From contig CATOCA020000037.1 in the NCBI GenBank assembly GCA_951406725.2, forward strand, positions 1 through 27,739: 27,739 nucleotides of DNA, read 5' to 3'. This DNA is from Octopus vulgaris (lineage: Eukaryota). Shown one piece after another: positions 31-27,739 of the stretch (position 1 is its first letter; every line of letters begins with the position of its first letter). The notes under the pieces were generated by a model that was not told the DNA's origin, made no database searches, and saw only the letters and a list, made by a program, of their open reading frames with translations. The translations under genes and the position numbers were made by a program.

Positions 31-900
31 TTAAATATAAACATATACATATATATATATACATATACATATATATACATATACATATATATATATATAT
101 ATACATATACATATATATATACATATACATATATCTATACATATACATATATATATATATATATATATATATATATATATATATATATATATACATATAT
201 ATATATACATATACATATACATATATACATATATATATATATATACATATACATATACATATATATATACATATACATATACATATATACATATATATAT
301 ATACATATACATATACATATACATATATATATATATATATATATACATATACATATATATATACATATATATATACATATACATATATATATACATATAT
401 ATATATAATATATATATATATATATTATATATATATACATATATATATATATATATATATACATATACATATATATATATATATATATATATATACATAT
501 ACATATATATATACATATACATATATATATATATACATATATATACATATATATATATATAAAGATATACATATATATATACATATACAATATATATATA
601 TACATATATATATACAATATATATATATATGTACATATACATATATATATATACATATACATATATATATATATATATATATATACATATACATATATAT
701 ATATACATATACATATATATATATATATATATATATACATATACATATATATATACATATATATATATATATACATATATATATACATATATATATATAT
801 ATACATATATATATATATACATATACATATATATATACATATACATATATATATACATATACATATATATATATATACATATATATACATATATATATAT
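31..900. repeat. (TA)n microsatellite, heavily interrupted by CA (TACATA-type units)
   Basis: Direct reading: alternating TA with frequent TACA interruptions. Confidence 0.97.
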
Positions 901-1369
901 AAAACGGAACATATATATGTTCCGTTTTCAGCAGAGAAAGACGTGATTGCCTTTGCTCTGTGAAAAAGTCTGCATAGAACGGCGAAATAACCCACTGTAG
1001 TTGCAAAACGTAAAACTCTAAGTCATAGAGATCAGTACAACACTTTGGTTAAAAATATTTTTAAAAATATATATATAAATATATACATATACACAGTAAT
1101 TTTCATTTTCGCCGAAACGCACATGGTGCAAAAATAACTGAACCAAGTTATCTCCTGCAAGAAAGAAAAAAGAAGCATCTCTCCCGAAAAAAATCCCGTA
1201 AACCAAAAAAATTATCCAGACCACATTGTTGGATTAGGTATCAATTTCATCTATTTCATATTTTATTTATTATTCTATTTTATCTTTCACTTAGGCCCAC
1301 ATCTTAGTTAAAGTTGCGATCGTCATTTTGTTTGTTTACATTTTCAATATCTGTTCTCGATATAATAAT

Positions 1370-2430
1370 TTTCCAGATACTCTATCTTCTAATTAGCCTT
1401 AAGATTAAATTAAATAACGTTTAATATTGATACCGTCAAATTAGCCTTAGGATTAAATTAAATAACGTTTAATATAGTTTAATATTGTTAATAATTATTG
1501 TTAATTAGCCTTAAGATTAAATTAAATAACGTTTAATATTGTTTTAATATTGTTAATAATTTTTCAGATACTCTATCTTCTAATTAGCCTTAAGATTAAA
1601 TTAAATAACGTTTAATATTAATAACGTCTAATTAGCCTTAGGATTAAATTAAATAACGTTTAATATTGTTAATAATTATTGTTAATTAGCCTTAGGATTA
1701 AATTAAATAACGTTTAATATTGTTTAATATTGTTAATAATTACTGTTAATTAGCCTTAAGATTAAATTAAATAACGTTTAATATTGTTTTAATATTGTTA
1801 ATACTTCTTCAGATACTCTATCTTCTAATTAGCCTTAAGATTAAATTAAATAACGTTTAATATTACCCACACTCTAATATAATATTAACATTGCTAATAT
1901 ATTTTCACATACTCTATCTCCTGATTAGCCTTAAGATTAAATAACGTTTTTATCCACACTCTAATATAATATTAATATTGCTAATATATTTTCAGATACT
2001 CTATCTTCTAATTAGCCTTAAGATTAAATTAAATAACGTTTAATATTAATAACGTCTAATTAGCCTTAAGATTAAATTAAATAACGGTTAATATTGCTTA
2101 ATATTGTATATATAATTTTTCAGATACTCTGTCTTCTAATTAGCCTTAAGATTAAATTAAATAACGTTTAATATTACCCGCACTCTAATATAATATTAAT
2201 ACTGCTAATATATTTTCAGATACTCTATCTCCAAATTAGCCTTAAGATTAAATAACGTTTTTTTACCCACACTCTAATATAATATTAATATTGCTAATAT
2301 ATTTTCAGATACTCTATCTCCTAATTAGCCTTAAGATTAAATAACGTTTTTACCCAAATAACGTTTTTACACAAACTTTAATATTGTTAATATTTCTTTT
2401 TCAAGTACTCTATCTTCTAATTAGCCTTAA
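1370..2430 (+). repeat. AT-rich tandem monomer array in the 5' UTR of A1 (core AATTAGCCTTA[A/G]GATTAAA(TTAAA)TAACGTTT, ~15 cores by manual count)
   Basis: The core recurs every ~50-100 nt with alternative spacer modules (CAGATACTCTATCTTCT, AATAATTATTGTT, ACCCACACTCTAATATAAT). Confidence 0.92.
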
Positions 2431-2491
2431 TATCTTCCTGTCTTCTCTCGAACATAATTAGATAGATAAACGGATAGACGGATTATCCAGC

Positions 2492-24828: not shown

Positions 24829-26320
24829 ATTAAGGCTAATTAGAAGATAGAGTACTTGAAAAAGAAATATTAACAATATTAAAGTTTGTGTAAAAACGTT
24901 ATTTGGGTAAAAACGTTATTTAATCTTAAGGCTAATTAGGAGATAGAGTATCTGAAAATATATTAGCAATATTAATATTATATTAGAGTGTGGGTAAAAA
25001 AAACGTTATTTAATCTTAAGGCTAATTTGGAGATAGAGTATCTGAAAATATATTAGCAATATTAATATTATATTAGAGTGTGGGTAATATTAAACGTTAT
25101 TTAATTTAATCTTAAGGCTAATTAGAAGACAGAGTATCTGAAAAATTATATATACAATATTAAGCAATATTAACCGTTATTTAATTTAATCTTAAGGCTA
25201 ATTAGACGTTATTAATATTAAACGTTATTTAATTTAATCTTAAGGCTAATTAGAAGATAGAGTATCTGAAAATATATTAGCAATATTAATATTATATTAG
25301 AGTGTGGATAAAAACGTTATTTAATCTTAAGGCTAATCAGGAGATAGAGTATCTGAAAATATATTAGCAATATTAATATTATATTAGAGTGTGGGTAATA
25401 TTAAACGTTATTTAATTTAATCTTAAGGCTAATTAGAAGATAGAGTATCTGAAGAAGTATTAACAATATTAAAACAATATTAAACGTTATTTAATTTAAT
25501 CTTAAGGCTAATTAACAATAATTATTAACAATATTAAACAATATTAAACGTTATTTAATTTAATCCTAAGGCTAATTAATAATAATTATTAACAATATTA
25601 AACGTTATTTAATTTAATCCTAAGGCTAATTAACAATAATTATTAACAATATTAAACGTTATTTAATTTAATCCTAAGGCTAATTAGACGTTATTAATAT
25701 TAAACGTTATTTAATTTAATCTTAAGGCTAATTAGAAGATAGAGTATCTGAAAAATTATTAACAATATTAAAACAATATTAAACGTTATTTAATTTAATC
25801 TTAAGGCTAATTAACAATAATTATTAACAATATTAAACTATATTAAACGTTATTTAATTTAATCCTAAGGCTAATTTGACGGTATCAATATTAAACGTTA
25901 TTTAATTTAATCTTAAGGCTAATTAACAGTAATTATTAACAATATTAAACAATATCGAGAACAGTTATTGAAAATGTAAACAAACCAAATGACGATCGCA
26001 ACTTTAACTAAGATGTGGGCCTAAGTGAAAGATAAAATAGAATAATAAATAAAATATGAAATAGATGAAATTGATACTTAATCCAACAATGTGGTCTGGA
26101 TAATTTTTTTGGTTTACGGGATTTTTTTCGGGAGAGATGCTTCTTTTTTCTTTCTTGCAGGAGATAACTTGATTCAGTTATTTTTGCACCATGTGCGTTT
26201 CGGCGAAAACTATATTAAACGTTATTTAATTTAATCCTAAGGCTAATTTGACGGTATCAATATTAAACGTTATTTAATTTAATCTTAAGGCTAATTAGAA
26301 GATAGAGTATCTGGAAAATT
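24829..26320 (-). repeat. 5' UTR tandem monomer array of A3 (~18 cores) including part of a ~375-bp tandem duplication
   Basis: Recurrent TAAGGCTAATT. 25835-26206 is repeated at 26207-26585. Confidence 0.88.
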
Positions 26321-26772
26321 ATTATATCGAGAACAGTTATTGAAAATGTAAACAAACCAAATGACGATCGCAACTTTAACTAAGATGTGGGCCTAAGTGA
26401 AAGATAAAATAGAATAATAAATAAAATATGAAATAGATGAAATTGATACTTAATCCAACAATGTGGTCTGGATAATTTTTTTTTTGGTTTACGGGATTTT
26501 TTTTCGGGAGAGATGCTTCTTTTTTCTTTCTTGCAGGAGATAACTTAATTCAGTTATTTTTGCACCATGTGCGTTTCGGCGAAAATGAAAATTACTGTGT
26601 ATATGTATATATTTATATATATATTTTTTAAATATTTTTAACCAAAGTGTTGTAGTGATCTCTATGACTTAGAGTTTTACGTTTTGCAACTACAGTGGGT
26701 TATTTCGCCGTTCTATGCAGACTTTTTCACAGAGCAAAGGCAATCACGTCTTTCTCTGCTGAAAACGGAACC

Positions 26773-27234
26773 ATATATATACATATATATATATATACAT
26801 ATATATATATACATATATATATATACATATATATATATACATATATATATACATATACATATATATATACATATATATATATATATACATATACATATAT
26901 ATATATATACATATATATATATATACATACATATACATATATATACATATATATATACATATACATATATATATACATATACATATATATATATATACAT
27001 ATATATATATATATACATATATATATACATATACATATATATATATATATATATATATATATATATATACATATATATATACATATATATATACATATAT
27101 ATATACATATACATATATATATATATACATATATATATACATATATATATACATATATATATATATATATATATATACATATACATATACATATACATAT
27201 ACATATACATATATATATACATATACATATATAT
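26773..27234. repeat. (TA)n/(TACATA)n microsatellite tract between head-to-head A3 and A4
   Basis: Direct reading. Confidence 0.96.
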
Positions 27235-27739
27235 ATCCAACTGACTTTTTTACCTATCCAACTGACTTTTTTACCACTGCAGATATAAAATCAGAGGCGG
27301 CGACGATAGATTACATCGATATAAATGAAGACGATGTAACCAAGGCTATAGATGAAATGAAAACAGACTCAGCTACTGGCCCCGATGGATTCCCGGCAAT
27401 CCTCCTAAAAGCATGTAAGAGAGTCCTAGCAAGACCACTGCAGTTCCTCTTTCAGAGCTTCCTTGCAGCTGGCAAACTTCCAGGAAAACTGAAGGAAGGT
27501 AAAATATGCCCCATTCATAAAGGAGGTAGCAGAGCGGAAGCCAAGAACTATAGACCTATCTCTCTGACCTCACACATCAGCAAGGTCATGGAACGAATAG
27601 TCAGAAGGAAGCTGATCACCTTCCTTGAAGAGAATGACTTGCTGCCCGACACCCAACATGGTTTCCGACCAGGGAGAAGCTGTTTAACTCAGCTCCTACA
27701 ACACTATGACTGGGTGCTGAAACGGCTGCTCAACCACTC
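27235..27739 (+). mobile_element. 5'-truncated family A LINE, copy A4 (continues beyond the window); ORF2 fragment [11 protein letters not shown]...RLLNH
   Basis: 27256-27739 matches A1 4676-5159 almost exactly. The first 20 nt are duplicated at the junction. Confidence 0.93.

Follow-up and report, generated by a model that had tools for sequence, protein, structure and literature searches.

Young LINEs, probably of the CR1 group, with a strong preference for (TA)n repeats in the genome of Octopus vulgaris

Target-specific non-LTR elements are known mostly among the RLE, Tx1 and R1 groups, as far as the accessible text of PMC4640811 goes. Among APE-type LINEs, Waldo (ACAY), Mino (AC), Kibi (TC) and Koshi (TTC) insert into microsatellites, and the accessible part of PMC3812793 describes such targeting by the APE endonuclease as poorly understood. 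All four belong to the R1 and Tx1 clades, in part according to PMC4640811 and PMC3124438. Microsatellites are also targeted by the RLE-type elements Dong (TAA), Togen (TG) and some HERO (available text of PMC3812793 and PMC4640811), and (TA)n itself is preferred by DNA transposons, the Micron MITEs of rice and MuTAnT of Medicago (PMC3812793, same portion). We found no TA-targeting LINE of the CR1 group in the literature, the scope of this search lying outside Repbase, paper supplements and most subscription papers.

The window analysed here is an entire unplaced contig of Octopus vulgaris of 27.7 kb, known from the assembly sequence alone. It was mapped with self-BLAST, TRF, ORF lists and junction print-outs (Table 1). 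Seven LINE copies, which belong to the families A, B and C, make up 20,189 bp of it, 13/13 visible element junctions abut (TA)n, and within the window no element is nested in another. The original prediction, which had counted seven copies of three families in about 20 of the 27.7 kb, all junctions at (TA)n and no nesting, was confirmed on these points. At three junctions (A1, C2 and A4) the (TA)n is met through a short stretch copied from the 5' end of the element itself.

Table 1. Elements, TA spacers and sub-features of the window.
Feature	Position	Strand	Remarks
(TA)n spacer 1	31..901	.	degenerate; C interruptions on + strand
A1, full-length family A LINE	902..6446	+	self-BLAST, TRF, junction print-outs; 5' UTR AT-rich with minisatellite
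A1 inverted 9-nt copy of own 5' end	902-910		
A1 ORF1	2495..3406	+	303 aa; ORF list
A1 ORF2	3358..6354	+	998 aa counted from first Met; ORF list
A1 predicted double stem-loop	6380..6414	+	3' end
A1 tail	6423-6446		(AATC)n
(TA)n spacer 2	6447..7841	.	
B, family B copy	7842..8487	+	5'-truncated; ~77% identity to A; (GGATTTAA)-type tail
(TA)n spacer 3	8488..8703	.	
C1, family C copy	8704..9461	+	5'-truncated; tail (TATCAAAG)3
(TA)n spacer 4	9462..11936	.	2.5 kb; no strand-bias flip at centre
C2, family C copy	11937..13137	-	5'-truncated; 98.5% identity to C1; 5' end with direct duplication of ~19 nt, TA in between
(TA)n spacer 5	13138..13542	.	
A2, full-length family A	13543..19121	-	open ORF1 and ORF2 frames; variant 5' end
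(TA)n spacer 6	19122..20817	.	
A3, full-length family A	20818..26772	-	both ORFs frameshifted; ~380-nt duplication in 5' UTR
(TA)n spacer 7	26773..27234	.	
A4, family A	27235..27739	+	5'-truncated; ends with contig end; direct 21-nt duplication at 5' junction

On the + strand, the seven spacers carried 14-76 C as opposed to 0-3 G interruptions, regardless of the orientation of the adjoining element. Since this strand-biased array is continuous through all spacers, the window is not a fold-back artefact, and the uniform bias excluded that an element and its flank had been duplicated in inverted form or assembled as a fold-back. In the final 1450 nt, comparison of A1, A2 and A3 gave 4-10 substitutions, the range among 17 copies being 0-56; A3 was separated by 1 substitution each from the copies at L004 and L006. 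As the three are no closer to each other than to unlinked copies, they are not local duplicates; local tandem duplication could be ruled out, and the claim of separate insertions held. Twin priming for C1 and C2 was rejected because each has its own 3' tail. Comparable arrays occur on chromosome-scale contigs, with A+A+C at C1:46.045-46.060 Mb and C+B in L176.

The ORF2 of A1 contains an APE endonuclease and a reverse transcriptase (Pfam scan, PDB search). The endonuclease lies N-terminal to the reverse transcriptase, LTRs are lacking, and a 3' repeat tail and 5' truncations are present, as in APE-type non-LTR elements. As regards the R1 and Tx1 clades, the best PDB match of ORF2 was human L1 ORF2p, at only E=5e-24, and no R1Bm or TRAS1 endonuclease was matched at E<=0.001. 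In an alignment of A, C and a further family, D, the endonuclease catalytic motifs were intact, with residue roles that we assumed to be those of L1 EN; nothing in this alignment set the TA-associated families apart. The families carry (AATC)n, (TATCAAAG)n and (GTAAAAGA)n tails, and a double stem-loop is predicted at the 3' end, with a shape common to A, B, C and D; its 5' edge is where many short copies start. CR1-group elements have an ORF2 without C-terminal CCHC and a tail of short tandem repeats. Both traits were found here, a C-terminal CCHC being seen neither in the ORF2 translation nor in the Pfam scan. Trees with unlabelled references grouped A-D and C/F with CR1-like sequences, away from RTE and RLE elements. 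Judged by their sequences, A, B, C and D are young LINEs of the APE type that likely belong to the CR1 group, and the CR1-group-like anatomy originally predicted agrees with the APE and reverse transcriptase domains recognizable in ORF2.

In the reverse transcriptase tree (LG+G4, 28 rows, 429 columns, unlabelled references), A-D and C/F formed a clade with 100/100 support, set apart from family E and from four metagenome rows resembling CR1. Two separate, well-supported subclades that are not sisters comprised A/B plus D and C plus F, and a tree forcing A/B and C together was rejected by the AU test (p-AU 0.00037). Marine-metagenome relatives between A/B and C had TA at the visible 3' end in 0/5 cases, a weak count made by eye on one contig each, which leaves out the ten proteins closest to A for want of a link to flanking DNA. 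The proposal that A, B and C are one lineage with inherited specificity had to be given up on the separate subclades and the lack of TA in these relatives. Preference for TA in two sublineages (A/B/D and C/F) either has two origins in this host or goes back further and was relaxed in relatives.

Genomic copies were located by exact sequence patterns, and TATATA <=12 nt from the element end was the strict criterion. The samples of A, C, D and E were not drawn at random but comprised the first 20-30 matches along one chromosome arm. At random positions (20 x 8 kb of the genome), TATATA lay within this distance in 5.6% of cases and started exactly there in 3.3%. For 3' ends, the counts were 22/30 in A, 27/30 in C, 16/29 in B and 17/20 in D; for 5' truncation points, they were 12/18, 14/24, only 12/26 and 5/7, respectively. 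TATATA stood immediately 5' of near-full-length A copies in 30/30 cases (by eye), and genome-wide it followed directly after 617 of the 925 C copies having two tail units. Family E served as control: a co-resident, young family (2788 matches) comparable in size, age and copy number, which from its motifs we take to be of CR1 type. With equal selection, TATATA was found at 3/30 of its 3' ends (4/30 by eye) and 3/27 of its 5' ends, and in a second sample at 3/24 and 2/15. Fisher p values for the TA families versus E ranged from 3e-10 to 6e-3. (CA)n, whose background frequency (3.6%) comes close to that of (TA)n, was not seen by eye at the start of any sampled A or C junction. In an abundant SINE whose tail resembles that of D, few 3' ends had TA (2/11).

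The four families A, B, C and D strongly prefer (TA)n without being strictly specific for it. The preference amounted to 46-100% by family and end; 10-54% of junctions failed the strict criterion, some of them lying at (TAA)n/(TACA)n or simply AT-rich sites. Flanks above background and control are what a microsatellite-targeting LINE shows, here in relaxed form. Of the (TA)n specificity first proposed for A, B and C, the genome-wide preference over background and E was upheld, with most sampled 3' ends at TATATA, whereas its strictness was not.

A preference of this kind might also arise passively, if random insertions survived only in TA arrays, as suggested for Drosophila Waldo-A/B in the accessible text of PMC3812793, or if element RNA carried TA with it. 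The octopus genome is indeed TA-rich (about 5%), and the older family B had a TA share below A, C and D, though only where very short copies abounded in the sample. Family E, however, persists outside TA despite its similar size, age and copy number, and 40-50-nt element fragments, with little fitness cost, were likewise found in TA. Moreover, TA was present ahead of arbitrary 5' truncation points. The type of interruption (TACA or TGTA) was identical on both sides at 12/13 informative loci (p=0.005), and the flanks are therefore pre-existing arrays. With respect to element sense, the type was random (16:15 at 3', 8:7 at 5'); since it tracks the locus and not the element, TA carried in element RNA was rejected. 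Passive accumulation or self-seeding, already disfavoured, thus appears very improbable. Lengths of TA on the 5' and 3' sides gave no asymmetry (19 versus 23 loci, p=0.64), and expansion at insertion was unsupported. In a search for empty sites, four runs compared with a full-length copy and its flanks, which proved repetitive, yielded no element-skipping joint among the 15 matches listed (147 more existed). Target-site duplications cannot be delimited within TA.

What is established is how the elements are built, that TA is preferred at either end, that the arrays were there before the insertions, and that a CR1-type family resident in the same genome behaves differently. We think it rather probable that the genome-wide preference of A, B, C and D for pre-existing (TA)n arises because their own endonuclease favours and nicks alternating TA, and that repeated insertions into one long array built the window. 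Target-primed reverse transcription would begin at a nick in TA DNA, and pairing of 1-3 nt between the RNA tail repeat and the target may aid priming. In the copies sampled, the base next to the tail was A throughout family A (30/30) and T throughout family C (30/30). The 5' end would be joined through annealing to TA on the opposite strand, where re-priming could duplicate the first few bases of the element. As TA is self-complementary and would survive on both sides of an insertion, both orientations are expected and the array would remain a target; it might, as originally suggested, also benefit the elements as a safe harbour.

Rearranged 5' junctions were frequent (about 5/39 truncated A/C copies, plus three in the window), and they would suit an origin in DNA breaks or structure, where long (TA)n hairpins, cruciforms or breakage are exploited via host nicks or a shape-reading endonuclease. 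(TA)n tracts are fragile. Such an origin would account for two non-sister sublineages converging on one target in a TA-rich genome, and for relatives elsewhere being without TA flanks (0/5). We nevertheless consider it unlikely, as family E shows no enrichment in the same genome at similar age, insertions also occur at targets of only 4-12 nt (L013, L028, L178, L180, L181), a length that does not allow stable cruciforms, and the endonuclease has retained its catalytic motifs.

Still less probable, in our opinion, is a tethering by ORF1p, whose Myb/SANT-like domain would bind AT-repeat DNA and recruit a loosely specific endonuclease. The ORF1 of A1 has a CCCH zinc finger and, weakly, an N-terminal Myb/SANT-like three-helix region: residues 2-61 matched PF13837 at E=8e-4, below the Pfam cut-off, and a single-sequence model gave a three-helix bundle with Myb/SANT domains in the top Foldseek rows, none with E<=0.001. 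The same N-terminal sequence recurs in the ORF1 of B. The domain was not found in the recovered part of C ORF1, where the N-terminus may be missing, although the 3' preference is strongest in C. Comparison of ORF1 with the ESM Atlas gave no usable match, and a homologue search returned one protein, an Octopus sinensis gene model containing part of ORF1. Look-ups of protein clusters yielded no names that were informative.

Nicking of TA by the element's own endonuclease remains our preferred explanation. More tentatively, CR1-group LINEs, which lie outside the three groups to which target specificity is usually ascribed, may have evolved (TA)n specificity, either on two occasions within a single cephalopod genome or on one occasion at the root of a marine subclade that is little described. 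The specificity would be encoded in the element proteins, and splitting and re-copying of TA tracts at each insertion would help to build up the abundant (AT)n of coleoids. (AT)n exceeds 10% of the genome in a squid (PMC9068888). The findings may bear on the large (AT)n content of coleoid genomes, on assembly gaps and marker design in coleoids, and on RNA-only gene insertion tools seeking harmless multicopy targets. A family resembling the CR1 group that has thousands of young copies, open ORFs and a strong (TA)n preference is at hand, and the TA families together with the non-targeting E form, in one genome, a matched pair for what directs an APE endonuclease to its target.

Like Waldo, Mino, Kibi and Koshi, in so far as the available text of PMC3812793 describes them, the octopus families combine APE endonuclease and reverse transcriptase with insertion into microsatellites. 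They differ from these four, on the same partial description, in their TA target, CR1-type grouping and relaxed preference. Dong, Togen and HERO share a microsatellite target with the octopus families (accessible parts of PMC3812793 and PMC4640811). They differ by a restriction-like endonuclease, a single ORF and another repeat. An RLE-type element within TAA repeats, presumably Dong/R4, also occurs in the octopus genome (L107). Micron and MuTAnT have the same (TA)n target but, as partly described, are plant cut-and-paste DNA transposons, not retrotransposons. RTE/Bov-B elements leave a Tn-TA signature, with TA at the cut and a tail repeat linked to the first target base (available text of PMC6007223 and PMC13295347). 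Both features recur in the octopus families, whereas RTE/Bov-B, as far as described there, uses a single TA dinucleotide 3' of a run of T instead of a (TA)n microsatellite, and belongs to the RTE clade. Zenon lacks ORF1 and has a poly-A tail according to the accessible part of PMC13343379; the octopus families possess an ORF1 and tails other than poly-A, and CR1-Zenon membership was ruled out by this ORF1 and the microsatellite-type tails. Neither "Myb" nor "CCCH" occurs in the searchable text of the ORF1 survey PMC4120745. With canonical CR1 and CR1-Zenon, the octopus families share two ORFs, APE and reverse transcriptase without C-terminal zinc knuckle, a short tandem-repeat tail, a 3' stem-loop and heavy 5' truncation; they stand out from the CR1 group by their TA preference, an ORF1 with Myb-like and CCCH parts, and a clade separate from E.

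The (TA)n preference predicted for LINE families A, B and C from the window alone held genome-wide. It is real but relaxed, and it extends over at least four young LINE families, the fourth being the related family D, in two sublineages. Exact 3'-end patterns matched 2080 times for A, 2165 for C, 32 for the B variant and 546 for D, the A 5' end 62 times. The first 30 matches each for A, C, B (29 after dropping one duplicate locus) and the A 5' end, and the first 20 for D, were inspected, a junction counting as TA when TATATA or ATATAT lay no more than 12 nt away. By this rule, 22/30 A, 27/30 C, 16/29 B and 17/20 D 3' ends adjoined TA, against a background of 5.6% with (TA)3 within 12 nt in 20 evenly chosen 8-kb stretches, where (TA)3 starts at 3.3% of positions and the value for (CA/TG)3 was 3.6%. 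The 5' truncation points visible in these loci gave 12/18 for A, 14/24 for C, 12/26 for B and 5/7 for D, and all 30 near-full-length A 5' ends, judged by eye, had TA. Many misses were degenerate TA or TACA tracts or short-duplication junctions, some were plain AT-rich sites. Across the whole genome, 925 C copies had two tail units, and in 617 of them TATATA directly followed the tail; this count scores variant-tail copies as misses, and three of the six bases may belong to a partial tail unit.

Passive accumulation of LINEs in TA arrays, or seeding of TA by the element RNA, could leave similar flanks, but we regard this as very improbable. A Pfam RT search located a co-resident young LINE, family E, with a 949-aa ORF2, a (TTA)n tail and 2788 matches, which we take from its motifs to be of CR1 type. 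The script scored TA at 3/30 of its 3' ends, several rows being incompletely trimmed of their tails, and inspection by eye at 4/30; its 5' ends gave 3/27, and an RT-selected sample gave 3/24 at 3' and 2/15 at 5' ends. Every comparison of A, B, C and D with E was significant (Fisher p 3e-10 to 6e-3). Since E shows no TA enrichment in the same genome, TA arrays there do not simply take up LINEs of every kind. Seeding was addressed by the interruptions in the arrays: if TA were carried in the element RNA, their type would be expected to track element sense. C-type and G-type interruptions, however, stood at 16:15 at 3' ends and 8:7 at full-length 5' ends, and thus do not track it. Both flanks of one insertion shared the interruption type in 12 of 13 informative loci among 41 examined (p=0.005). 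The TA flanks are therefore arrays that were present before insertion. The long TA arrays among those examined were strand-biased over kilobases, with nearly only TACA or only TGTA interruptions.

The window spans the whole of C67, an unplaced contig in a genome of 2.8 Gb and 227 contigs. Self-comparison, TRF, ORF lists and junction print-outs identified seven LINE copies of three families, summing to 20,189 bp, with seven degenerate (TA)n spacers between them. TA was present at 13/13 visible junctions, at three of them beyond a short repeat of the element's 5' terminus in direct or inverted orientation. The A copies resembled one another no more than they resembled unlinked copies, and the + strand of every spacer carried C interruptions, whichever way the neighbouring elements point; the insertions are thus independent, as originally predicted. 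A single original TA array, repeatedly invaded, fits the window, and an inverted duplication is ruled out by the uniform C interruptions. Arrays holding several copies were also found on chromosomes. In match lists, with 20 kb inspected, A and D copies clustered densely in two TA-rich regions.

Coordinates of the features discussed
Feature	Position	Strand
A1	window 902-6446	+
B	window 7842-8487	+
C1	window 8704-9461	+
C2	window 11937-13137	-
A2	window 13543-19121	-
A3	window 20818-26772	-
A4	window 27235-27739	+
A 5' UTR minisatellite	window 1363-2433, 17553-18717, 24827-26585	
Repeated A 5' end	window 902-927; L129, L138	
A parts joined across gap	L266 2333-2398	
Truncation hot-spot mini-copies, A	L005, L013, L014, L017, L027-L029	
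Truncation hot-spot mini-copies, C	L032, L034, L039, L045, L048, L052, L057, L059	
Truncation hot-spot mini-copies, B	many loci	
D 3' end	L184, G000:C1:9441692	
A + D clusters	G000:C1:71.4-72.5 Mb, C2:57.5-59.7 Mb	
RLE-type LINE	L107:4912-7104	

Beyond the last complete tail unit, all 30 A copies continued with A and all 30 C copies with T, in both families the base with which the tail would go on. Brief pairing between RNA and target during target-primed reverse transcription, which PMC6007223 describes for CR1, L2 and RTE, predicts such a match. Among 39 truncated copies of A and C, about 5 carried a second copy of their initial bases at the 5' junction (7 in the script list, 2 of them artefacts). 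Full-length A 5' junctions sometimes show the element's first 9-25 nt again, in either orientation and spaced by runs of TA, which suggests repeated priming on TA while the 5' end joins. In one contig, two parts of an A copy with 64 nt missing between them are joined by (AT)7, an internal deletion patched with TA.

We consider the element endonuclease to be probably responsible for the preference. It would nick alternating TA, the tail would pair with the target over 1-3 nt, reverse transcription would frequently halt early, and the 5' end would be joined through annealing to TA of the opposite strand. The self-complementary target would permit both orientations, and TA kept on either side of the insertion would let long arrays gather several copies. 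It is unlikely that structure or breakage of TA tracts underlies the preference, and tethering by ORF1 appears improbable. ORF1 of A and B contains a CCCH finger; that of A gave a weak Myb/SANT-like match, with which structure model and fold search were concordant, neither being significant. ORF2 comprises an APE endonuclease with intact catalytic motifs and an RT; according to ORF lists, both ORFs are open in A1 and A2, and A3 is frameshifted.

A common double stem-loop is predicted at the 3' terminus of each of the four families A to D (z -1.8 to -2.9). Its 5' edge is a strong 5'-truncation hot spot, giving mini-copies of 30-55 nt plus tail; those of C often start exactly 52-53 nt upstream of the end of the 3'-end pattern. 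The A 5' UTR contains an AT-rich minisatellite of short shuffled modules varying in number and order among copies. The stem-loop start and (GTAAAAGA)n tail of D are common to an abundant SINE (copies in L143, L160, L105), so D is likely its partner LINE; of the 11 SINE copies seen, just 2 had TA behind the tail. An RLE-type LINE, presumably Dong/R4-like, with an open 731-aa frame had (TAA)n at both ends. The search for ORF1 homologues found a single protein, an Octopus sinensis gene model (P0181, named LPIN3), of which a piece 51% identical to A ORF1 probably reflects faulty gene modelling or exonisation of part of a LINE.

ORF2 homologues, none of them named, shared 88% (one), 64% (two) or about 40% identity (the remainder). 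Trees on the RT and C-terminal region comprised 152 rows (FastTree), 44 rows, and 28 rows (IQ-TREE with bootstrap), the subsets being hand-chosen to span the 152-row tree and the rows carrying no labelled references. A, B, D and the three close homologues formed one clade (100/100), nested among marine-metagenome elements (99/97). C grouped in another clade with F, an element seen once (L132) with TA at both ends. Both lay inside a larger clade (100/100) separate from E. A tree forcing A/B/D with C/F was rejected (p-AU 0.00037, simple LG+G4 model), and one inherited lineage of A, B and C, as first proposed, is wrong as far as the tree goes. The marine-metagenome relatives in the larger clade with a visible 3' flank (L186, L187, L188, L191, L194; 5 of 80 loci) showed no junction TA run, and one had (TACA)n nearby; the check is weak, each locus being one short-read contig from a host whose TA content is not known. 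CR1-Zenon identity was rejected, as the elements do not fit the Zenon traits of a missing ORF1 and a poly-A tail described in PMC13343379.

A full-text literature search, with Repbase, Dfam, subscription reviews and supplements outside its reach, turned up no account of a CR1-group LINE that targets TA, and prior notice is possible; the available portions of PMC4120745, PMC4758252, PMC11481361, PMC9068888, PMC3124438 and PMC5786205 do not mention one. Microsatellite targeting by LINEs is already known. As far as the available text of PMC4640811 goes, target-specific families are mostly early-branched or of the Tx1 and R1 groups, with Togen and HERO added, and RTE has a Tn-TA signature (parts of PMC6007223 and PMC13295347). 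Among the microsatellite targeters in the accessible part of PMC3812793, namely Waldo, Mino, Kibi, Koshi and Dong, none is on TA; Micron MITEs, covered there too, do target it. MuTAnT, from the portion of its description available, also targets TA but, unlike the LINEs studied here, is a DNA transposon.
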